From the NCBI GenBank assembly GCA_964016885.1, contig OZ024746.1, positions 23,374,001 through 23,438,000 on the forward strand: a stretch of DNA of 64,000 bases. Reading direction: 5' to 3'. Position 1 is the first letter of the stretch. Each line of letters opens with the position of its first letter. This document shows, piece by piece, positions 2,096 to 63,968 of the stretch. The position numbers and the translations under genes were made by a program. The DNA comes from Eledone cirrhosa (lineage: Eukaryota). Below the pieces are notes generated by a model. It did not search any database. It saw only the letters and a program-made list of their open reading frames with translations, and was not told the DNA's origin.

Positions 2096-3090
2096 ACCTC
2101 ATTTGTTTCGGACTGGAAGTTCTAGCAACTGCCATTTTGCTACCTAAATATTGAAAATTTCACTAGAATTACAGTGATATCACAGAAATGTATCTCAGAC
2201 AGTGAATTGTTATCTTTGTCATCATCATTTTCACGACAATCTTTTCTTGAAGCTATCAACTTAACATCAACTTAAGAAAATTAGTTATATAACAAAATCC
2301 CTCAAAATTCTTTATTTTTCAAATTAACTGGAAATCATTGTCTTTCATTAGAAAATCATTAGATCAGTATATATCAATATATAGAAATAATTCCAATATG
2401 TTATTTCTAAATTAATGGCTGGAACAGGTAAAAGTATATATATATATATATATATATATATTAGTTCTCACCTTTCAGAAACAGGAAAAGAAATTACAAA
2501 GAAATGCAAGGATTTAATTTTTCTAAGTTCTCATTTGTAGACTTCCTAAAAATATTTAATGACAACATTTGATATAATTACGTTTAGAGATGTTACTAAT
2601 TCCTCATAAACTACTTTTTTTTTATTTTCTAACCCCTCCTGCTACGACAAAGAACATAAGTCGAATGTTGAGATTTTTTTTTTTCTCCAAGCAATAATTA
2701 TATAGTATTACAGCTACTTATTTAACTGAAATGTAATAATAATGAGCACATATGTTAATGCAAAAGAAACTACAACACTGGTCTACTTGGGAACAATAGA
2801 AAATATTTCACTGTACATGACTATTGCTGATACAGAGATATGACAGAACAACAGTTTGGCAGTGATATTACAACATGAAAAAAAAGTTCTACTTAGCGCC
2901 AAGATTAAAATAAACTTGTACAAAATCAAAATGAAACCTTTAAAAGTAGGTCAAATTCACAATGTTTGAATATAGTTTTAAATAAATAAGGACCTTTAAA
3001 ACATGTGCGCACATGCTACAGCATCTCTAGAGTAAAAATACATGCAGTAAAATCTAAAAGGTTATATATATATACATACATATATATATT

Positions 3091-3122
<32 letters not shown>

Positions 3123-5324
3123 AAATAAAAATTTATATTGCACCAACTGGGAATTTACAATAAATCATTGTAAATATTTGCAAGTTTACCTTCAGGCTCA
3201 GCAAGACTGGCAAAGTGTTTGGCCCAAGAAGAGGGATATTCCATATGCTATCTAGAAATATATATACATATAGACATACACACACACATCCATTCTTAGA
3301 GACTCGAGACCTACACATACTTTATATTTCTCTACACATAAAACAATGAAATTTAACTTACATTTTTAAAACAACCCAACTGACCCCCACCCCTGGTTTT
3401 ATGATCAAGAACCATATATTTAAAGTGTACATATTTAACCCTTTCATTAACATATTTCTAATAAAAACTAATTTTCAATTAATTTTAAAAATAAGAATTT
3501 GGAGAGACTTAGTAATATAATCTTAAGATGGTGTTTGGAACACAAACGTTCTTGCATAATATCATGACAGAACAATTTAAAATAAATAGGGGCAATTTCA
3601 GAAGGTTTGGTGTCCAAATGTTTAATTAATATAGAAAATTATAAAATATTTTATGTAAGAAACTATGTTTAAATGTTTAAAACACCAGCTTAAAAAATTT
3701 ATCTAAATTAATTGAAAAATCATAATCTGTATATTTCATTAGATATGTGGACATGAAATGGTTAAACATCTAAATTACTTTGATTATTCAGAACTGGATG
3801 AAAAATGGAATAATAGATTATTCATAATGTTAACTGATACACACAGAGAATCTGTGTATTCATAAGTGAACCACCATGGGCTTTAAACTACATAACATGA
3901 TATATGTACAGGCACACATAAATATGCTATAGTTAGATAAATATTTAAAATACACAATTTCTGAATATCTTATAAAATTCTAAAACTTCATTAATCAACT
4001 AAAGTCTATAAAAAGTATATACCGTCTGTACATACTTGTTTGTGTATATGTGGCATCTTTTTCCATGAAAACATGAAAAACCAGCATGTGTTGGATCTAT
4101 AAAATCTCAATATTTATTTAAAATGAAGGTGTGACATATATACAAGTATATGATGATGATGATGACTGTATCTCAATTTCGAGTGTACAAGTTGCACATT
4201 TTTTTCCAATAAGACATGTAAAATCAAGAACACTGTAAATGTTAAATATAAAATAGAGGCATGACCTATACACAAGTATAAACAGGGGGGGGGGGGGGGG
4301 TGGATATATATCATCATGCCTTCCCTTGTAACAAGTGTTGGAGAGGTCGTCAAAGATGAAGTACTTAATCAGAGCTAGACTTTTCAGATAGGAAAGGGTC
4401 TACATGACACTAACAAACGTTCACATATTTTACAGAACCATTCCCCTCCTTAAATATTTATAGGTCAACACTGAAAAAAAAAAAAATGACCTGTGAACTA
4501 TTGTTTATGAGAAAGAAACTAAAATTTTAAAAAATGTAAATTGGAGATAACTTACATTTTTGATAGTAAGCCATTACTGGTTTTATGATACAAAACTGTT
4601 TTAACCCTTTTGATACGAAAACTGGCTCTAGCTCTATTAAACAAAACCACCCATTTTAAAGAGTTCCTATTTGAATTAAAATCTTCCAATATGATTTTAA
4701 ATAAAATCTCTATAAGTTATTATCCTTAGTAATGAAATAATAAATTTAGTAAAACCCTCAAAATCCTTTATTAATTGATATGGAGAGTCAAGGTAGCACA
4801 ATATTATTGATTTTTCAAAATTCTGTGAAAATCATAAGCAGTGTATTCCAATAGAAATATGGTAACATGTTTCTTGGGTCTTTTAATTACAAGGATCCTA
4901 ACCCAACCAATGTTTAAGATGTCAAGACTAGAAGATGTATAGGTATTACAGGAATAGAAATAGACTTTATCCTTTTTGATACCAACTCACTTGAAACTAT
5001 CCCAGCTTCTATGCAGAAAAGCCATTTGCTTTAAAGCATTCAAGTTTAAATTTGAACCTTCAATTATGATTTTTTATAAAAACGTTTTAAGTTACGTTCT
5101 AAACAGCAACTTAATAAATCCCTTAAACCTCTGATTATTAAAAAATAATTAATTGAAAATTATAGGCATATCATGTCATTAGAAATATGGTAACAAAAGG
5201 GTTAACAGGTGAACTTTCTAAGGTTATCAAGCCAGAATGTGAAGCAGTTATTCTTTCTACAGATACACCAGGAAGAGGGAGGGGAAAATTAAACCCCTTC
5301 ATTATACCTCTTAAGTTCTACATT

Positions 5325-8693: not shown

Positions 8694-9977
8694 CAGGGTG
8701 AGGACGATATTTGTTCGCAATTTTCAACTGCTAATTTTATGCAAAATTTTTTTTTACTTCCGTTGTCACTCTTGTCTTCATAAAAACCGACTATATTTCC
8801 ATTATTTATTTTCAGAATAATTGATTATGAATAATTTTGAACCTCCAAATTTGTGGAAGAGACACAGAGTTCTTCTTGGAATCCATGCCGGGAGGACAAA
8901 TAAGGAAATTTCAGACTTTCTCAGAGTCAGCAGGAGAATGGTGGAAAAGGTCAGAAAGGAATTGGAAGATTCAGGATTCGACTATGAAGCAACATCAGAG
9001 AGGAAAACACATGATCGACGATCTGACGCCTTCAGAACGCCCGAGTTCGTCGCTGAAGTTCAGGATATCATCAACAATGAACCTAGCAAGTCGATGCGTG
9101 CCATTGCAAGGGAGAAAGGCGAGGATGAAAAGCTCATTAGGATGGTGGTACATGAAGACATTTGCTACGTTTCATACAAGATGAGGAAAGAACAATTTCT
9201 GTCAAAGGCGATGCAAGAAAAGCGACTGAAGCACGCAAAGAAGCTGATCAACAAGTTGAAACACCTACTGGAGCCAGACATGCTGTGGTTTTTCTCCGAC
9301 AAGAAAAACTTCTGCCAAGACCAGAAGATCAACTCCCAGAGCAACAGGTGGCTCGCTGTCTCATCCAAAGACGTGCCCAGAGTCATGCAGACAAAGTTTC
9401 CAGCGACAACATTGGTCTTAGGTGTCGTCAGCAGTCAAGGTAACGTCATTCCACCTCACTTCTCTGAGAGCCTCAAGCTGAACACCGATGGCTACATACG
9501 CGTTCTGGATCGACCAGGTAGCTGCAGGTAGGCCATATGTGTGGCAGCAAGACTCAGCGCCCTGCCATACCAGCCGAAAGACCCAAGCCTGGCTGTCAGA
9601 GAACTTCGTCGACCACACTTCACTTGACATCTGGCCTCCCAGCTCGCCTGACTGCAACCCCCTCGACTTCTTTGTGTGGGGCGCAGTGGAACGAGACACC
9701 AACAGATCTAGCTGCAATACGAAAGACGATCTGAAGGCCAGGATCACAAGTGCCTTTAGGGGCCTAAGTCGGGGGACAGTGACGAAGGCCTGTAGCCGGT
9801 TCCGAGGCCACCTTGAGGCCGTCATCAAAGCCAATGGCGGGTTTATCGAGTGAGATCGAAAGAACAAGTCATGAAGACAAACTGACCCCAGTTTGATAAA
9901 TAAATCTTAAAAAATAAAACTACTGTGCTAGTTTTTCCTAGACAGTAATCTTGCAAACAAATATCGTTTGCACCCTG
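8694..9977 (+). mobile_element. Full-length Tc1/mariner DNA transposon, DD37D (maT) family, 1284 bp
   Basis: Left TIR CAGGGTGAGGACGATATTTGTTCGCAA; right TIR (reverse complement) CAGGGTGCAAACGATATTTGTTTGCAA; TA at 8692-8693 and 9978-9979; transposase inside. Confidence 0.95.
8827..9853 (+). pseudogene. Frameshifted DD37D transposase
   Basis: HTH-like N-terminus and WFFSDKKNF (first D) in ORF 8821-9531; VWQQDSAPCH and WPPSSPDCNPLD in ORF 9488-9853; 37 residues counted between the second and third D; frame break near 9505-9510. Confidence 0.92.
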
Positions 9978-39268: not shown

Positions 39269-39820
39269 CCCTTTTGTTGCTATATTTCTAATGAAACAAA
39301 CTGCCTATAATTTTCAAACAATTTTGAAAATACTTAAGAATTTACTTGCGGTTTAGTAATATAAGTGACTTCCTCATTATTGAGCTGGAGTTTGAAGCAT
39401 AACTTACTTAAGATTCTTACACAAGGATTATGATGGACGATGTTTAGATAAATATAGACACTAAAATACAGAGGAACTGACTATTTACAGCAACAAGATC
39501 TGTTTTTCTGTAGAACCTATTTACAGTAAAGTGGGACAAGCAAACGTGAGTCAAGTGTACTGGCTCTGGATACTGGGCCATGATAAATGTTAGGTTATAA
39601 TCTACCACATCTTTCATTGATCCAAAATATTATTGATTTGGCTGGGCAGTGTTAAATGATAGATTACAATCCAGCAGATCTTTTATTGATCCAACGCACT
39701 ATTGATTTGGCTATCTGCCATTCTTCACATACATGTACGGAAAATTATTCAACTTTTTAAATATTTCAAAAATGAATGATTGATTAATTAATTGACTGAT
39801 TGATTGAACATATAACAGCC

Positions 39821-42465
39821 AATATCATCCCAGCTACCATAACTTCAGTCAATATCATCACTGCCACCATAACTTCAGTCAATATCATCACAGCCACCAT
39901 AACTTCAGTCAATATCATCACTACCACCATAACTTCAGCCAGTATCATCACAGCCACCATAACTTCAGTCAATATCATCACTGCCACCATAACTTCAGCC
40001 AGTATCATCACAGCCACCATAACTTCAGTCAATATCATCACTGCCACCATAACTTCAGCCAATATCATCACAGCCACCATAACTTCAGTCAATATTATCA
40101 CAGCCACCATAACTTCAGCCAATATCATCACAGCCACCATAACTTCAGTCAATATTATCACAGCCACCATAACTTCAGCCAATATCATCGCTGCCAATAT
40201 CATCACCATCAATATCATCACAGCCACCATAACTTCAGTCAATATCATCACCATCAATATCATCACAGCCACCATAACTTCAACCAATATCATCACAGCC
40301 ACCATAACTTCAGTCAATATCATCACCGTCAATATCATCACAGCCACCATAACTTCAGTCAATATCATCACAGCCACCATAACTTCAGCCAATATCATCA
40401 CAGCCACCATAACTTCAGCCAATATCATCACAGCCACCATAACTTCAGCCAATATAATCACAGCCACCATAACTTCAGCCAATATCATCACAGCCACCAT
40501 AACTTCAACCAATATCATCACAGCCACCATAACTTCAGCCAATATCATCGCTGCCAATATCATCACAGCCACCATAACTTCAACCAATATCATCACAGCC
40601 ACCATAACTTCAACCAATATCATCACAGCCACCATAACTTCAACCAATATCATCACAGCCACCATAACTTCAGTCAATATCATCACTGCCACCATAACTT
40701 CAGTCAATATCATCACTGCCACCATAACTTCAGTCAATATCATCACTGCCACCATAACTTCAGTCAATATCATCACAGCCACCATAACTTCAGTCAATAT
40801 CATCACAGCCACCATAACTTCAACCAACATCATCACAGCCACCATAACTTCAGTCAATATCATCACTGCCACCATAACTTCAGTCAATTTCATCACAGCC
40901 ACCATAACTTCAGTCAATATCATCACAGCCACCATAACTTCAGTCAATATCATCACAGCCACCATAACTTCAGTCAATATCATCACAGCCACCATAACTT
41001 CAGTCAATATCATCACAGCCACCATAACTTCAACCAATATCATCACAGCCACCATAACTTCAACCAATATCATCACAGCCACCATAACTTCAGCCAATAT
41101 CATCGCTGCCAATATCATCACAGCCACCATAACTTCAGTCAATATCATCACAGCCACCATAACTTCAGTCAATATCATCACAGCCACCATAACTTCAGTC
41201 AATATCATCACAGCCACCATAACTTCAGTCAATATCATCACAGCCACCATAACTTCAACCAATATCATCACTGCCACCATAACTTCAGTCAATATCATCA
41301 CAGCCACCATAACTTCAGTCAATATCATCACAGCCACCATAACTTCAACCAATATCATCACAGCCACCATAACTTCAACCAATATCATCACAGCCACCAT
41401 AACTTCAACCAATATCATCACAGCCACCATAACTTCAACCAATATCATCACAGCCACCATAACTTCAACCAATATCATCACAGCCACCATAACTTCAACC
41501 AATATCATCACAGCCACCATAACTTCAGCCAATATCATCACAGCCACCATAACTTCAACCAATATCATCACAGCCACCATAACTTCAACCAATATCATCA
41601 CAGCCACCATAACTTCAGCCAATATCATCACAGCCACCATAACTTCAGCCAATATCATCGCTGCCAATATCATCGCTGCCAATATCATCACAGTCAATAT
41701 CATCACAGCCACCATAACTTCAGTCAATATCATCACTGCCACCATAACTTCAGTCAATATCATCACTGCCACCATAACTTCAGTCAATATCATCACCGTC
41801 AATATCATCACTGCCACCATTACTTCAGTCAATATCATCACAGCCACCATAACTTCAGTCAATATCATCACTGCCACCATAACTTCAGTCAATATCATCA
41901 CTGCCACCATAACTTCAGTCAATATCATCACTGCCAATATCATCACCGTCAATATCATCACAGCCACCATAACTTCAGTCAATATCATCACTGCCACCAT
42001 AACTTCAGTCAATATCATCACTGCCACCATAACTTCAGTCAATATCATCACCGTCAATATCATCACTGCCACCATTACTTCAGTCAATATCATCACAGCC
42101 ACCATAACTTCAGTCAATATCATCACTGCCACCATAACTTCAGTCAATATCATCACTGCCACCATAACTTCAGTCAATATCATCACTGCCAATATCATCA
42201 CCGTCAATATCATCACAGCCACCATAACTTCAGTCAATATCATCACTGCCACCATTACTTCAGTCAATATTATCACTGCCAATATCATCACCGTCAATAT
42301 CATCACTGCCACCATAACTTCAGTCAATATTATCACAGCCACCATAACTTCAGTCAATATCATCACTGCCAATATCATCACCGTCAATATCATCACAGCC
42401 ACCATAACTTCAGTCAATATCATCACTGCCAATATCATCACCGTCAATATCATCACAGCCACCAT
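39821..42465. repeat. 2.6-kb minisatellite, 30-bp unit AATATCATCACAGCCACCATAACTTCAGTC with 15-bp half units
   Basis: About 88 unit-equivalents read directly; produces the ~900-codon ORFs on both strands. Confidence 0.98.
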
Positions 42466-42580
42466 CTCGCCGAGGTTAACTTTGCCTTTCATCCTTACTG
42501 GGTTGATAAAATAAATAAAGTACCAGTAATGTACTGGAGTACTTGCTGGCCTTGTGCCAAAAGTAGAAACAATTATTATC
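42466..42580 (+). mobile_element. 5'-truncated SINE family A abutting the minisatellite
   Basis: CGCCGAGGTTAACTTTGCCTTTCATCCTTAC...AGTAGAAACAATTATT. Confidence 0.85.
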
Positions 42581-42609
42581 AGTCAGTCTAATATAAACTT
42601 AGCTATATC

Positions 42610-43365
42610 CCCCACTAGTATCACCTCCATAACCTCCCATTCCACCAGTACCCCCACCACTGCAATCACCAGCATTACCAGTCACACCACCATCACCCCC
42701 ACTACAACCAGCCCCACCACCACCACAAACACCACAACCACCACCAGCACGACAACCATAATCCCCAACACCACCACTACCATAAGAACCACCACAAGAA
42801 CCACATCTCCAACCATCATTATAGCCATAAGAACCATCACCATTATAACCACAATGACCACCACAACTACAATCACCACTACAACCACCTCTCTAACTAC
42901 CACAACTACAGCCATCATTATAACCACTAGCACCACCACAACTACAATCATCACACAACTAACATTATAACCATAAGAACCATCACAACTACAACCACCA
43001 CTACAACCACCACTATAATCACCACTACAGCCATCATTATAACCACTAGCACCACCACAACTACAATCATCACACAACCAACACTATAACCACAAGAACC
43101 ATCACAACTACAACCACCACTATAATCACCACTACAGCCATCATTATAACCACCAGCACCACCACAACTACAATCATCACACAACCAACACTATAACCAC
43201 AAGAACCATCACAACTACAACCACCACTACAGCCATCATTATAACCACTAGCACCACCACAACTACAATCATCACACAACCAACACTATAACCACAAGAA
43301 CCATCACAACTACAACCACCACTACAACCACTATTACAACCACCATCACTACCATCACTTAGCCA
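42610..43365. repeat. (ACC/ACT/ACA)-rich low-complexity tract with tandem units of 119, 107 and 95 bp
   Basis: CTACAATCATCACACAAC recurs at 42942, 43061, 43168 and 43263. Confidence 0.9.
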
Positions 43366-48401: not shown

Positions 48402-48601
48402 NNNNNNNNNNNNNNNNNNNNNNNNNNNNNNNNNNNNNNNNNNNNNNNNNNNNNNNNNNNNNNNNNNNNNNNNNNNNNNNNNNNNNNNNNNNNNNNNNNN
48501 NNNNNNNNNNNNNNNNNNNNNNNNNNNNNNNNNNNNNNNNNNNNNNNNNNNNNNNNNNNNNNNNNNNNNNNNNNNNNNNNNNNNNNNNNNNNNNNNNNNN
48601 N
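48402..48601. other. Assembly gap (200 N)
   Basis: Run of N flanked by microsatellites. Confidence 1.
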
Positions 48602-50169: not shown

Positions 50170-51000
50170 AAGCCTGCGTTCTTCAGCCTTGCTATATGGA
50201 TGCCAAACGTGGAAAACTTACAGGCATCATATCAGGCAGCTAGAAAGATTTCATCAGCATTGTATCTGATGCATCCTGAACATTAAGTGGTCTTCTTACA
50301 CACCTGATGTGGCTGTACTTGAGAAAGTGGGTAGCACCAGTATTGAGAGGAAGATTATTATGAACTGCATGCATTGGGCTGGTCATGTGGTCAGAAAAAG
50401 GCCACAGGATAAACCAAAGAAATGGTTAAAGGATTTCATAAAAGAGAATCTTAAAGCTCTGAAGATTGATATGGCGAACTGGGAGAGACTAGCTGAGGGC
50501 TATACACCATGGAGAAAGATCATCAAGTATGAATGTGATGTCTTTCAGAAAAAGCAAGTGGAACATGCCGTTTTGAAATTCTCACTTCGTAAGTGGGACT
50601 CAAGTGCAATGTCTGCAAAAATCCTGCAGGAATTGAGGTGCAATGTATGTGGTCGATTTCTTCTAACAAGAGCTGGATTTGTCAACCATCTGAAATCACA
50701 CGAACCAGGGAGAAATCAAGCCACCTGTGAGATGGTTTGACTGCCGCACATTCTATGCTACATTTGCAGCGAGTGTGGCTTAATTTGCAACTCAGCAGGT
50801 GGACTGACCAGACATGGTAGATTGCATGAAAATACATCCGGTAATGCTAGGAAATAGACAGTTCAAGTGTCATATCTGTGAACATGCCTGCAAAACAAAA
50901 GTAGGTCTGAAAAGTCACCTGTGTGCACATAATTGTGCAATGTTCAATAAAGGGATGGCACTCTTCTGACAAGAAGTAGCAATTAGCATGTATGTATGTA
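50165..51000 (+). mobile_element. 5'-truncated RTE/BovB-like LINE with three C-terminal C2H2 fingers
   Basis: LLYGCQTWKTYRHHIRQLERFHQHCI*CILNIKW, HWAGHVVR, then CNVC..H..H, CSEC..H..H, CHIC..H..H; (TATG)n tail. Confidence 0.88.
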
Positions 51001-55905: not shown

Positions 55906-56434
55906 AATTATATATCTTATTAATTAATCTCTTTAGTTTTGTTCATGTATTGTTATATCCTCACTAAATATAATGAGTCCACTCTGGTTCAAGAATATAT
56001 TTCTTGTTTCATTGAGTGAATGGCAAGAAAACAATTAATTTGACTTGTGTTGCCACCTGGCAAAGCAGTATCAGTTAATTTTGAAAACACTATTATATCA
56101 TTTCATTTTACGTCCGATTTTCCCTGCTTGCAAGGGTGGGACGGGAACTGATTCTGGCATGATTTCTACAGCTGGATGCCCTTCCTAACACCAACCTCAT
56201 TTACAGTGAGTGCTGGGTGCTTTTTTTCCGTGGCGCCTACACGTCCACTTTACAGTGGATTGATAGGGACCGCAGTCCCTATCATCTCATTTCCACAGCT
56301 GAGTAAACTGGAGCAATGTGAAATAAAGTGTCTTACTCGGGGAAACAACACATCACCCAGTGTGAGAATTGAACTCACAACCTTTCGATTGCAAGGCCCT
56401 AACCACTAAGGCTCTAACCACTAAGCCATGTGCC

Positions 56435-57803
<1,369 letters not shown>

Positions 57804-57953
57804 CAGTATTTTCCGTTGTGTTGTAATATAAATATTACACACAGTAGATTATCAGCTCACGTAGAGTTTGCTCGACGGTTCCAGTTGTAGTTCCAAAAGT
57901 AATCCGGAGAAAAATAGAAAGATTTGAATGGATACAGTTTAGTTGAAAGGAAT

Positions 57954-58070
57954 TTATTGACACGTGTTTCTATAACAGTTACATAACCTAAAACAGCTAT
58001 CTACAAACTTTTAGTTATGCAGACATTCAATATTTCAATGTTATTATTTACTGTCATTTCATCAGAATAA
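57954..58070 (-). ncRNA. Inverted copy of the 59958-60074 hammerhead
   Basis: TTATTGACACGTGTTTC...TCATCAGAATAA on the plus strand. Confidence 0.7.
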
Positions 58071-58642
58071 TATTACTGAGGACCTATTTAGTTTTTATAG
58101 AGAATATTAGGAGGGAGGGGTGAAGTTGTTAGAAGAATAGTTGAAGGAGTGGTTTTTCGATAGCAGTGAGAATTCTTGGTGGCAGTGAGTAATTAGATTC
58201 CCATCTGTTGTTTTGACATTTTTTATAGAATATATTATTGGTTATTTTTCTAAATTTATAGAAGGATTAGAGATAGTAAAGATATGCGTGGTTGGTTTTG
58301 TGTTTGCACTTAATTAACATTCAGACTTAAATTTTTCTTTCAAGTGTACGTATCCTTTCACCCACGCATTCACACACAAATATATTTGCACACCTTTACA
58401 AAATACATATACTCACAATTCACATATTCATACTTACATATATATACACATGCATACACATATATATACACACATGTATTCATGTACATACATACGCGCT
58501 CATGTGTATACATTTTCATACTCAACTTATCTTTATATACACACGTATAGACACACTCATATATACATACATACTCTAGTCCATGTGTACACACATACAC
58601 ATACTTACACATCCATATACACATATATACATACATATATAT

Positions 58643-58687
<45 letters not shown>

Positions 58688-58718
58688 CATATATACATAC
58701 ACATACATATACACATAT

Positions 58719-59012
58719 GCCTATAGGCATTCTTACTCAATAAAACACCAGAGCCAAAGAAATGTAACAACTTTAGCAGAAAAAGCTTGGACGCTCAGGG
58801 ATAGTGACCAAAAGTTTACCCTAAAATGGGAAAAATTAGCTAAAACCCAAAGCTTTTCCAGGAGCCAAAATTTCTGCAAATTATGTAATCTTGAGATTTA
58901 TTACATAATCACACACAAGAAGAAACTGCTGAATAACAGAATTGAACGAACATTATTCTGCCGTCACAGAACTAAAACCCTTTTTTCCCACTACAAGCCG
59001 AATATTACATAA
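58719..59012 (+). pseudogene. C-terminal fragment of a PLE GIY-YIG endonuclease (absent from the ORF track; no start codon)
   Basis: YRHSYSIKHQSQRNVTTLAEKAWTLRDSDQKFTLKWEKLAKTQSFSRSQNFCKLCNLEIYYIITHKKKLLNNRIERTLFCRHRTKTLFSHYKPNIT*: T.L...W.L, W, CxxC..E, LLN.R.E and CRH motifs, uninterrupted. Confidence 0.85.
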
Positions 59013-59124
59013 AAGAGGGACATCCCCCAACTATATAAACCTTAATCTAGTTAGAAAAATATAAAAACAATCTCTTCTCAACATATATTAATAACCTTAA
59101 ATTACCATACTAATAATGAAAAGA

Positions 59125-59182
59125 TATGCTGATGAGAATAGGTACAAATATGCGATAATGAATGTGTCTAAAAACGTCCATA
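59125..59182 (+). ncRNA. Minimal type I hammerhead (G12 appears mutated or deleted)
   Basis: TATG-CTGATGA-GAA-TAGGTACA..TGTGTCTA-AAAACGT-C-CATA; stem I TATG/CATA, palindromic ACGT stem III, GUC site. Confidence 0.6.
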
Positions 59183-59336
59183 AGTATGTATATATATGTG
59201 AAAATGTATATAAATAAGTAAATATATATATATGTTTGATGTGTATAGTTAGATGTAAGTGTATTCATGTATTAAAGTGCTTATATATATATGTGTATGT
59301 ATATATGTGTATATGTATGTGTATGTATATATGTAT

Positions 59337-59374
<38 letters not shown>

Positions 59375-59957
59375 ATGTATATGTATATATATATGTATAT
59401 ATATATGTGTATATGGATGTGTAAGTATGTGTATGTGTGTACACATGGACTAGAGTATGTATGTATATATGAGTGTGTCTATACGTGTGTATATAAAGAT
59501 AAGTTGAGTATGAAAATGTATACACATGAGCGCGTATGTATGTACATGAATACATGTGTGTATATATATGTGTATGCATGTGTATATATATGTAAGTATG
59601 AATATGTGAATTGTGAGTATATGTATTTTGTAGAGGTGTGCAAATATATTTGTGTGTGAATGCGTGGGTTAAAGGATACGTACACTTGAAAGAAAAATTT
59701 AAGTCTGAATGTTAATTAAGTGCAAACACAAAACCAACCACGCATATCTTTACTATCTCTAATCCTTCTATAAATTTAGAAAAATAACCAATAATATATT
59801 CTATAAAAAATGTCAAAACAACAGATGGGAATCTAATTACTCACTGCCACCAAGAATTCTCACTGCTATCGAAAAACCACTCCTTCAACTATTCTTCTAA
59901 CAACTTCACCCCTCCCTCCTAATATTCTCTATAAAAACTAATAGGTCCTCAGTAATA

Positions 59958-60074
59958 TTATTCTGATGAAATGACAGTAAATAATAACATTGAAATATTG
60001 AATGTCTGCATAACTAAAAGTTTGTAGATAGCTGTTTTAGGTTATGTAACTGTTATAGAAACACGTGTCAATAA
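59958..60074 (+). ncRNA. Type I hammerhead with long branched stem II
   Basis: TTATT-CTGATGA-A-ATGACAG...CTGTTAT-A-GAA-ACACGTGT-C-AATAA; palindromic stem III; GUC cleavage after 60069; A-A mismatch at 10.1/11.1. Confidence 0.7.
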
Positions 60075-60227
60075 ATTCCTTTCAACTAAACTGTATCCAT
60101 TCAAATCTTTCTACATATATATATATATATATACATATATAGAATTAGACAATTTGTATTCCAATGTTACTAAGTAGTTGCATTGGATGGAGTCAACTGA
60201 TGTCAGAGATTGCTCAACGTATACATA

Positions 60228-60299
<72 letters not shown>

Positions 60300-60322
60300 C
60301 ACACATATATATATATACACAC

Positions 60323-60353
<31 letters not shown>

Positions 60354-60494
60354 CATACATATATACATATACATATATAACATATATATACATATATATA
60401 TATACATATATATACATATATATATATACATATATACATATATATATATACATATATACATATATATACATATATATATATATATATACATATA

Positions 60495-61538
60495 TAACTT
60501 TGAATAACTTTGAAATGTTTTGGCCAGTATTGGCCCAGGCCATGTCTAACTTAATAGCACCACCTGGCGAAGTCTTTCAATTCAGGATTTGGGCACCATG
60601 GCCCATTCGAGAAGAGAATTACTGTTTGCGGAGACATATCCGGGTGTGGGTGGTTTGTCCGGGATTACTTGGAGGAATTTGTCCAAAGACTTCTTGAATT
60701 TTGTGTGGTCAATTTCTGTTTTGACGTGTCCTGGTGTGATGTTGAAGAGAGCAGGGCCGATTGAGGTGAAATAATTGTGCCGTATTGTTGTTATGAGTTG
60801 CGATTTAGATTTTTGTATGGGACGGATAGCACGGGGCCCAAGCCTTGGGTGTATCTTGAAGGCGATGCCAACATCATTTGGGCAGTGATGATGGAACATT
60901 TTCCACATCATGCAGATAATATAACGCTCACGGTGATGTTGGAGTGAGTAAAGTTTCAGGTTTTCTAGTCGACCCAGTAGTCAAGGTCTGACATGCCATC
61001 TAACTTTTTCGTGATTGCCCTTTGAGGAGCTTCAAGTTTCATGATACTTTGTTTCGTGTGGGGAGACCACAGTGGACAACAGTATTCAAGGTGTGGTCGG
61101 GCAAAAGTAGAGAAAAGAAGGATAATGGTGTGGGAATCTCTCGACTGGAAGGTTCTGAGGATCCAGGAACACATTCTGCGGGCCATGTCAACTTTGCTGC
61201 TTATATGCGTGGCCCAGCTTATGTTGCTGTCCACGGTTACTCCCAAGTCTCTGATGTTGTTAGATGCCATGAGAGTTTCCCCGGAGGGAAGGAAGTACGG
61301 GAGTTTCAGAGCATCCTCTTTTCCAAAGTGGATCAGTTCGAATTTGTCTTCGTTCAGTAACATGTTGTTCTTTTCAGCCCATTGGGTAACAGCCAGTAGG
61401 TCTGACTGAAGGCTTATCCGGTCATCCACGCCATTGATGACATTTTGGAGCTTGGAATCATCAGCGAAAATTGGAATCATCAGCGAAAATTTTAATGTTG
61501 CTGTGTTTGATGATGTCAGTGATGTCATTAATATAGAT
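60495..61538 (-). mobile_element. 5'-truncated CR1-type LINE (RT C-terminal half to 3' tail)
   Basis: [64 protein letters not shown]; stop at 60582; (TTCAAAGTTA)2 tail; two frameshifts. Confidence 0.93.
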
Positions 61539-61539
61539 G

Positions 61540-61571
<32 letters not shown>

Positions 61572-61578
61572 CATACAC

Positions 61579-61611
<33 letters not shown>

Positions 61612-62194
61612 CATATATACACATACATATATATATACATATATACATACATATATATACATATATACATACATATATATACATATATACATACATATAT
61701 ATACATATATACATACATATATATACATATATATATACATATACATACATATATATATACATATACATACATATATATATACATATACATACATATATAT
61801 ATACATATACATACATATATATATACATATACATACATATATATATACATATACATACATATATATATACATATACATACATATATATATACAATATACA
61901 TACATATATATATACATATACATACATATATATATACATATACATACATATATACATACATATACATACATATATATATACATATACATACATATACATA
62001 CATATATATATACATATACATACATTATACATACATATATATATACATATACATACATATATATATACATATACATACATATATATACATATATATATAC
62101 ATATACATACATATATATACATATATATATACATATACATATATATACATATATATATACATATATATATATATATACATATATATATACATAC

Positions 62195-62225
<31 letters not shown>

Positions 62226-62226
62226 C

Positions 62227-62285
<59 letters not shown>

Positions 62286-62306
62286 CATATATATATACAT
62301 ATATAC

Positions 62307-62365
<59 letters not shown>

Positions 62366-62522
62366 CATATATATATACATATACATATATATATATATAT
62401 ATATACATATACATACATATATATACATATACATACATATATATATACATATACATATATATATATATACATATACATATACATATATATATACATATAC
62501 ATATATATATATATATATATAC

Positions 62523-62553
<31 letters not shown>

Positions 62554-62554
62554 C

Positions 62555-62587
<33 letters not shown>

Positions 62588-63109
62588 CATATATATATAC
62601 ATATACATATATACATATATATATACATATATATATATATACATATATATATACATATATATATATATACATATATATATACATATATATATATATACAT
62701 ATATATATATACACATACATATATATATACACATACATATATATATACATATATATATACATATATATATATATACATATATATATATACACATACATAT
62801 ATATATACATATATATACATATATATACATATATATATATATACATATATATATATACATATACATATATATATACATATATATATATACATATATATAC
62901 ATATATATATATACATATATATATATACATATATATACATATATATATATACATATATATATACATACATATATATATATATACATATATATATACATAC
63001 ATATATATATATATACATATATATATACATATATATATATACATACATATATATATATATACATATATATATATACATATATATATATACATATATATAT
63101 ATACATATA

Positions 63110-63173
<64 letters not shown>

Positions 63174-63197
63174 CATATATATACATACATACATATA

Positions 63198-63238
<41 letters not shown>

Positions 63239-63247
63239 ACATACATA

Positions 63248-63344
<97 letters not shown>

Positions 63345-63353
63345 ACATACATA

Positions 63354-63394
<41 letters not shown>

Positions 63395-63445
63395 ACATAC
63401 ATATATATATATATACATACATATATATATATATACATACATACA

Positions 63446-63486
<41 letters not shown>

Positions 63487-63523
63487 ACATACATATATAT
63501 ATATATACATACATATATATATA
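61539..63523. repeat. ~2-kb (TA)n/(TACA)n microsatellite
   Basis: Read directly. Confidence 0.98.
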
Positions 63524-63968
63524 CATGGTGGCTGCCAACTCGTTTTCGAGTACGGCCACTACTTTATATCCATGTAGGAGAACCCCTACCAATGCGCTGA
63601 ACAAGTGGGACTTTTTAGTCCAGCCAGCGACTTGAAAACTCTGGTACAAACACTATAGTGAGCAAAGGCACTGCACAAAGCCAGTCCCACTCTCTTAACC
63701 AAGATGATATTTACCAAAAAGAAGAACAAGTCAACATCATTGGATACCATCAGGGTTGCAGGTGTTATATCAGAGTTTTCCTTCTAGAATTCTGCCTTGA
63801 CAAAGGCTAAGGGGTCATCTCTCCCGGTGATTTTGGATGGCCTTTGACTTTTAAGAGCTCCTTTGCCCTTTGACAGGTTTTGTTTTTAGTCCTGCAGGAT
63901 ATTCAAAGTCACCCTCCTCACGAAGAAACCTTGGTGGGGTTGCCAGTTTAGTCGCCAACGACCCGACC
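63524..63968 (-). mobile_element. Apparently 5'-complete copy of the bipartite RTE-derived element, with a 107-bp internal deletion
   Basis: Reverse complement matches 49677-49908 plus 50016-50147 and extends ~85 bp further 5' (GGTCGGGTCGTTGGCGAC...); microsatellite on both sides. Confidence 0.85.

Follow-up and report, generated by a model that had tools for sequence, protein, structure and literature searches.

Head-to-head insertions of a Hydra-clade Penelope-like element in Eledone cirrhosa pair one tailed with one tail-less end

Introduction

The closest described relatives of the element reported here are the Penelope-like elements of the Hydra clade (Hydra-1_Obim, Penelope-13_HM and Penelope-17_HM; Craig et al. 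2021, PMC8557442). In the sections of that paper devoted to the clade, these elements are characterized by a single ORF coding for a reverse transcriptase followed by an endonuclease (RT-EN), by the RWK, DKT and CxCX5C motifs, by the lack of a CCHH motif and by CxxC and CxH pairs flanking the conserved E and N residues of the endonuclease. They are inserted in (TA)n and carry a hammerhead near the 3' end; Penelope-13_HM is given with an inverted 5'-truncated copy. The same paper names the formation of the tandem and inverted repeats and of the tail in Penelope-like elements as an open problem.

The other known systems bear on integration. The insertion units of Pen2a_Av (PMC3846280; Fig. 2 legend of PMC8557442) display head-to-head arms, partial tandems and a tail at one end, and in the relevant passages of both papers the tail is optional or often one-sided. 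In vitro, the protein of the anole Poseidon element PAc nicks and extends both strands, and two internal start sites bracket the tail, while nothing points to a requirement for hammerhead cleavage (Frangieh et al. 2024, PMC11167929); the passages of that study on initiation draw no connection between this pair of starts and the paired arms of inverted copies. In the twin or dual priming outlined for L1 (PMC2837659), both target strands prime and inverted cDNAs are joined in the middle.

We have analyzed a stretch of 64,000 nucleotides of the Eledone cirrhosa genome (assembly GCA_964016885.1, contig OZ024746.1, positions 23,374,001 to 23,438,000 of the forward strand), hereafter called the window, and the family of elements to which one of its insertions belongs. 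This family resembles the Hydra clade of PMC8557442 in its single RT-EN ORF and motifs, its (TA)n target, the hammerhead near its 3' end and, as for Penelope-13_HM, its inverted 5'-truncated copies. It differs from the clade as described there by a unit of 3,607 bp (generally under 3 kb in the clade), a 1.1-kb 3' UTR containing a microsatellite, a tail of 111 nt (30-40 in the clade), a stem-loop II of 86 nt (roughly 10-25 nt) and a high copy number, with more than 1,400 ends and 11 intact ORFs in our sample. It shares the overall design of the Pen2a_Av units, but its two arms are of shared lineage, junction palindromes are rare, and the tail is one-sided in every intact pair that was counted. 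The two ends bracketing the tail recall the two starts of PAc, except that the PAc starts lie inside the ORF and have no homology with the target, whereas those of the present family precede the ORF and have 3-5 nt of TA sequence in common with the target. Finally, the arms produced by L1 twin priming do not overlap, as the second primer is annealed upstream of the first; in the present family its position would be downstream, and the 3' end is duplicated.

Results and Discussion

Structure of the insertion in the window

The features of the insertion are listed in Table 1. The initial annotation had described two near-perfect inverted arms at 57915-58718 and 59303-60113, separated by a spacer with an open 96-aa frame ending in CKLC..E..LLN.R.E..CRH, and an extension of about 110 bp on the left side. 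All three were found again: the arms are reverse complements with 800 matching positions and differ at 3 substituted sites, by a single 1-bp indel and by two indels of 4 bp within the microsatellite, the frame lies in a 584-bp spacer, and the extension measures 111 bp. The spacer is single-copy, the flanks of the insertion are not mirrored, and no match to the element was detected within the window outside the foldback.

Table 1. Features of the head-to-head insertion, in window coordinates (a dot means no strand)
Feature	Position	Strand	Remarks
Left target: (TA)n-rich array, 1.37-kb	56435..57803	.	final TATA common to site B
111-nt tail, the sequence between site A and site B	57804..57914	-	left arm only; outer end is site B
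Left arm: inverted final 804 nt of the 3' UTR (unit positions 2804-3607)	57915..58718	-	
Mirror copy of the predicted hammerhead	57954..58070	-	CUGAUGA 58065, GAAAC 57970, predicted cut 57959
Inversion junction	58717..58730	.	14-bp palindrome containing 3 added bases (58719-58721)
Right arm: 5'-truncated element (unit positions 2197-3607)	58722..60113	+	ends at site A without tail
Final 96 codons of the 773-aa ORF	58722..59012	+	C-terminal part of the GIY-YIG endonuclease, CxxC-E-N-CxH
Degenerate hammerhead-like motif	59125..59182	+	CUGAUGA kept; AAAA replaces GAAA; core fails
TA/TG microsatellite	59186..59593	+	belongs to the element's own 3' UTR
Predicted type I hammerhead	59958..60074	+	CUGAUGA 59963, GAAAC 60058, predicted cut after 60069
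Right target: short (TA)n-type run	60114..60140	.	TA common to site A

The 96-aa frame lacks a start codon and opens downstream of both the GIY-YIG motifs and the catalytic Arg, which are missing; since the RT is lacking as well, this copy is dead and unable to code for a protein. Both flanks are (TA)n, which would mask a target-site duplication. The three bases added at the junction likely arose when one cDNA end snapped back over a short distance. Compared with its nearest sampled relatives, the window copy has differences at 4 of about 897 sites. The recent insertion that had been proposed is supported: the locus is a young, 5'-truncated, head-to-head insertion of a Hydra-clade element, and is ordinary for its family.

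An abundant Hydra-clade family

When the 96-aa peptide was used to search the 3.0-Gb genome of the species, at least 150 matching places were obtained, all at 100% identity. We examined 120 stretches around such matches, which represent 119 of 125 clusters and include the window; they are referred to below as the 120 loci. The recovery of full-length copies, recommended in the initial annotation, yielded a Hydra-type unit of 3,607 bp in which a 773-aa ORF (for instance that of the sibling locus L021) is followed by the 1.1-kb 3' UTR. The ORF is uninterrupted in 11 of the 22 segments that span it.

The 773-aa protein contains RWK at position 37, DKT at 121, YRDD and a CxCX5C linker. Its endonuclease is located C-terminal to the RT and ends with CKLC (729), E (735), N (748) and CRH (757). 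The absence of a CCHH motif separates it from Naiad, Neptune, Nematis and Poseidon, and the C-terminal position of the endonuclease from the N-terminal arrangement of Naiad. The sequence follows the Hydra alignment printed in Fig. S7 of the supplement of PMC8557442, as compared by eye. On the basis of these motifs and of this by-eye comparison, which together set the clade, the predicted product is that of an endonuclease-bearing Penelope-like element of the Hydra clade. Both the Penelope-like identity and the clade had been put forward from the window alone, and the full-length siblings, with their RT and GIY-YIG endonuclease and every listed Hydra motif, are in agreement with them.

The AlphaFold model of the 773-aa protein (pLDDT 90.4) has telomerase RT as its best structural match (Z 16.1, rmsd 4.3, 290 aligned residues), and its residues 648-751 superimpose on the catalytic GIY-YIG domain of I-TevI (Z 9.7, rmsd 2.3, 89 of 92 aligned). 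A single-sequence fold of the endonuclease was uninformative (pLDDT 37). Neither the 96-aa peptide nor the 773-aa protein matched any Pfam entry, and an alignment of 17 members gave no relevant match there; with the same alignment, a PDB sequence search returned 0 matches.

The family is abundant. Exact motifs made of an element end plus (TA)n number 1,429 for the tail-less end (site A, defined below) and 1,115 for the tailed end (site B) genome-wide, and (TA)n adjoins 170 of the 183 outer ends analyzed, as the target proposed from the two (TA)n-type flanks of the window copy would have it. Variants present in at least 4 loci are mostly synonymous (21 synonymous against 7 non-synonymous) while private variants are not (134 against 288; p 1e-5); source copies are therefore under selection, and inserted copies drift. 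An older sister subfamily gave 225 matches. Partial tandems of the pseudo-LTR type occur at several loci, and tandem units inside one arm differ by 0.27%. These data document a Hydra family that is abundant and was active recently, whose tail measures 111 nt and whose hammerhead has a long stem; Pfam and Rfam scans miss it.

Several minor observations concern the family and its surroundings. Next to five site-A ends (L061, L075, L085, L118 and L120), and 0 site-B ends, of the 183 ends, (CT)n is found instead of (TA)n. The protein search found 302 relatives, of which the best 120 have 31-43% identity and lie mostly on short contigs; their number suggests that the Hydra clade, missed by Pfam, is much larger than the 27 families given in the part of PMC8557442 that treats it. 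In sequence runs labelled as two other organisms, near-identical pieces of L026:7170-7725 are present, one of 125 nt without any difference and one of 395 nt with 4 differences, which may reflect close relatives, horizontal transfer or contamination. At about 1000-2350 of L021, a second, unrelated Penelope-like 3' fragment was recognized by eye some 500 bp from the Hydra copy; it has a cysteine pair inside GIY-YIG and its own short hammerhead-like motif. The flank of L021 also includes a SINE-like stretch, presumably of the sort familiar from octopus genomes.

One predicted hammerhead per arm

Three hammerheads had been reported in the window copy. Two of them, at 59958 and, inverted, at 57954, are mirror copies of a single motif present once per arm, and a descriptor search detected only these two in the element; the third, at 59125, is a degenerate relic without GAAA. 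The motif at 59958 and its mirror possess the type I core (CUGANGA, GAAA and NUH) with stems I-III. Stem I has 5 bp, A-A occupies 10.1/11.1, GAAAC is followed by ACGU and GUC, and the 86-nt stem-loop II is closed by an 8-bp base helix. When the 3' region was shuffled 3000 times, the descriptor found a hammerhead in 0 of the resulting sequences. The base helix of stem II appears in the unconstrained fold (whole-region z -1.5), and the full ribozyme fold lies 3.8 kcal/mol above the minimum. In the sister subfamily, 12 of 15 aligned copies have A-U at 10.1/11.1 and the stem II helix has 11 bp. Stem covariation among 22 sequences comprises 0 pairs with a two-sided change and 2 with a one-sided change. 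The motif is thus a predicted type I hammerhead near the 3' end of the element. In the Hydra hammerheads displayed in PMC8557442, stem II is short and, in many of them, the base pair adjoining the core is unpaired; the Rfam scan of 56000-62000 gave no hammerhead, only microsatellite-driven and other sub-threshold noise.

The motif at 59125 keeps CUGAUGA and plausible stems, with AAAA in place of GAAA. Across 118 loci, A stands at the position that we number G12 in 117, and in 1 locus the adjacent base, with which the A run starts, is replaced by G. A genome search returned 0 versions of this motif with an intact core, and 0 variants of the hammerhead with a more diverged stem II were found. 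A more compact hammerhead built on the GAAA around 59992 was rejected, since it has no stem I and the descriptor finds none there.

If hammerhead-cut RNAs served as templates, copy junctions would accumulate at the predicted cut. They fall there in 10 of 23 matches, compared with 8 of 25 and 5 of 18 at two control sites (p 0.21); a third control site gave 28 matches and was left unclassified. This lack of an excess is in line with the in vitro results of PMC11167929, as set out in its main text, in which cleavage is dispensable.

Each head-to-head pair joins one site A end to one site B end

We define site A as the tail-less end (window 60113) and site B as the tail end (window 57804), 111 nt further. 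The head-to-head arrangement was found at 71 of the 120 loci, with both ends intact at 62, one end broken at 8, and 1 running off the examined stretch. The foldback architecture is therefore common in the family, as is already known for such elements. All 62 intact-ended loci of this protein-selected set have one A and one B end. The remaining 49 loci end at A (34) or at B (12), are broken (1) or mixed (2). Two pairs of loci with the same junction, L066/L067 (850 kb apart) and L081/L082 (10 kb apart), look like segmental or assembly duplicates.

The same analysis was carried out on a set in which loci were not chosen by protein, namely all exact A and B ends (100 A, 84 B) on the first 185.7 Mb of contig C1. 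All 45 divergent end pairs are A/B, an outcome with P 2e-14 if the two ends were chosen independently; 11 of these pairs are common to the protein-selected set. The remainder consists of 3 neighbouring non-divergent pairs and of 50 A and 38 B ends that are unpaired. In the sister subfamily, of which the first 100 of the 225 matches were analyzed, the head-to-head pairs are A/B in 20 cases out of 20. No A/A or B/B pair was found among the about 114 distinct loci of the three sets, so that the qualitative statement of a tail often present on one end becomes an exceptionless rule. The ends share 3 nt at A and 5 nt at B with the (TA)n target, and the predicted RNA fold of the tail region is unremarkable (z -0.43).

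In a literature search made on titles and the beginnings of abstracts, in which subscription journals and the older Penelope literature are poorly covered, we found no paper that relates the inverted units of Penelope-like elements to twin or dual priming, or that counts the ends in this way. The rule is likewise absent from the accessible portions of a retrozyme preprint (bioRxiv 10.64898/2026.07.22.740005) and of PMC12910113.

The two arms share a lineage and are joined by microhomology

Outside the microsatellite, the arms diverge by 0.35% within a locus and by 1.01% between loci, the within-locus value being the lower one in 46 of 47 loci. At 46 marker sites, minor alleles occurred in both arms 130 times out of 135, leaving 5 discordant; in 26 new loci of the C1 set, 9 of 10 lineage markers are in both arms. 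The sister subfamily behaves in the same way, with 1.67% within and 3.26% between loci and 15 of 16 loci lower. Variants private to one locus are mostly one-armed (134, against 30 in both arms), which argues against a later homogenization of the arms.

The A arm reaches deeper than the tailed arm in 38 of 73 loci and in 15 of 30 C1 loci, the window copy being one such locus; the C1 figure leaves out 4 of 34 new loci, which resisted parsing. Breakpoints within 15 nt of each other occur at 6 of 30 C1 loci (0.9 expected, p 1.5e-4) and at 3 of 14 sister loci. No such excess exists in the protein-selected set (1 of 59). Near-equal breakpoints would fit a shared broken template or a second enzyme catching up with the first. 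Among the 57 junctions without added bases, 43 show an overlap of at least 2 bp (18% expected), with a mean of 3.2 against 0.75 for random joins; these overlaps were taken from BLAST and may be overstated. Added bases are present at 14 of 71 junctions, and a junction palindrome arm of at least 5 bp at 2 of 71. The arm lengths are thus mostly independent, and the arms are joined by microhomology.

Some arms consist of the tail only. They stop at unit position 76 (L276, L277 and L279, beside a small hairpin) or at unit position 4, right at site A (L030 and L258), and these two positions are possible stall points of a second enzyme.

A model for integration

The fixed A/B ends and the single lineage of the arms suggest that the two cut strands likely copied the same RNA. 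Both nicked (TA)n strands probably prime on a single element RNA, whose two fixed internal start sites are separated by 111 nt. With a little less assurance, we lean towards a wider reading in which Penelope-like elements integrate by twin priming in a reversed form, on a single RNA: each target strand uses one of the start sites, and the first cDNA is displaced by the second enzyme, a single step that would generate the tail, the inverted pseudo-LTRs and the one-sidedness. From the polarity of target-primed reverse transcription, a head-to-head unit with the RNA 3' ends outward would correspond to two target-primed events on opposite strands. Strand 1 would prime at A, and the RNA located 3' of A would stay single-stranded, as is expected if initiation is internal, like that of the anole element. 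Strand 2 would then prime at B and copy the tail and the same 3' UTR while displacing the first cDNA, after which the two cDNA 3' ends would anneal by microhomology and be filled in. With B used first, the RNA:cDNA duplex would cover A, and the products would be single arms with a tail but never B/B pairs; A/A pairs would be excluded because one RNA has one A. The order of A before B is read solely from the absence of A/A and B/B pairs.

Several points weigh against this one-RNA model. The shared lineage would also fit two RNAs from one source locus, and the equal breakpoints, whose excess does not extend to the protein-selected set, would also fit a fold-back; 5 of the 135 marker observations are discordant; strand displacement by Penelope-like RTs is an assumption; and the tail region has no distinctive fold. 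In addition, in the experiments presented in the main text of PMC11167929, the anole system used the same start sites on both strands and priming needed no homology. The end rule and the shared lineage make the mechanism directly testable, with intact 773-aa copies at hand.

The strongest alternative, which we nevertheless regard as rather unlikely, is that an asymmetric protein dimer carries two RNAs of one source locus, one engaged at A and one at B, each priming one strand. Most of the data would be accounted for: the A/B rule would follow from the asymmetry of the dimer, and the shared lineage from the dominance of one source per cell, which the scenario requires. Strand displacement would not be required; a dual priming has been proposed for L1 (PMC2837659), and the anole protein is predicted to dimerize according to the main text of PMC11167929. 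Against it, the asymmetry must be assumed, the excess of near-equal breakpoints is not predicted, and several source lineages coexist (46 marker sites, 11 intact ORFs in 22 segments), yet the arms agree in 130 of 135 marker observations.

Fold-back of a single cDNA is less probable still. Here a cDNA started at B would fold back and copy itself, a nuclease would trim the copy at A, and the centre of the palindrome would later be lost asymmetrically. Identical arms would follow automatically. Self-priming was proposed for rotifer elements from junction palindromes (PMC3846280), and nuclease resolution for the tail (PMC8557442), each in the passages on the respective structures. The 14-bp palindrome at the window junction and the near-perfect palindromes at 6 of 30 loci point in the same direction. 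Nevertheless, the tail-less arm often reaches further 5' than the arm from which it would have been copied, in the window as elsewhere, and some tailed arms are nothing but tail. The A-ended copies are the commonest single ones (34 of 49) and give 0 A/A palindromes, and junction palindromes are as scarce as described above. Owing to the longer A arms and the missing A/A class, a fold-back followed by deletion needs extra rules. The end rule and the arm data together argue against a simple fold-back.

Two independent insertions at one (TA)n site, with arms later made alike by gene conversion, would account for the 30 locus-private variants common to both arms. This scenario is very improbable, in view of the 134 confined to one arm, of older loci that keep 1-1.7% arm divergence while sharing lineage markers, of the lack of target (TA)n between the arms and of a strict A/B rule that independent events could not produce. 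An assembly or read fold-back artefact, which public contigs did not address as they do not cover the window junction, is hardly credible because the arms differ at private sites, the 584-bp spacer and the flanks are unmirrored single sequence, and the A/B design recurs with different junctions at more than 100 loci. The one-RNA model proposed here also differs from ordinary L1-type twin priming, whose product was rejected since the arms duplicate the same 3' end instead of being non-overlapping pieces with an internal deletion.

Double-stranded RNA and other features of the window

The initial annotation regarded any read-through transcript as a potential ADAR or Dicer substrate; judging from the sequence, RNA transcribed through the locus could form a duplex of about 800 bp. 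No host gene was recognized in the 64-kb window. The genomic copies show no A>G excess and thus bear no trace of ADAR editing: private A>G changes amount to 96 on 1,244 A and private T>C changes to 72 on 780 T, and 3 of the 30 shared private changes are A>G.

The remainder of the window contains other repeats. Two open frames at 8821-9850 (+), split by a frameshift, are similar to what we take to be a Tc1/mariner-IS630 transposase, and the frames at 50270-50737 (+) and 60585-60980 (-) presumably represent remnants of the C-terminal part of a LINE ORF2. Positions 39816-43354 comprise a minisatellite with some 88 copies of a C-rich 30-bp unit and, after it, repeats rich in ACC/AAC, with a strong negative GC skew. 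An assembly gap of 200 bases extends from 48402 to 48601, and a second (TA)n array lies at 61531-63526.
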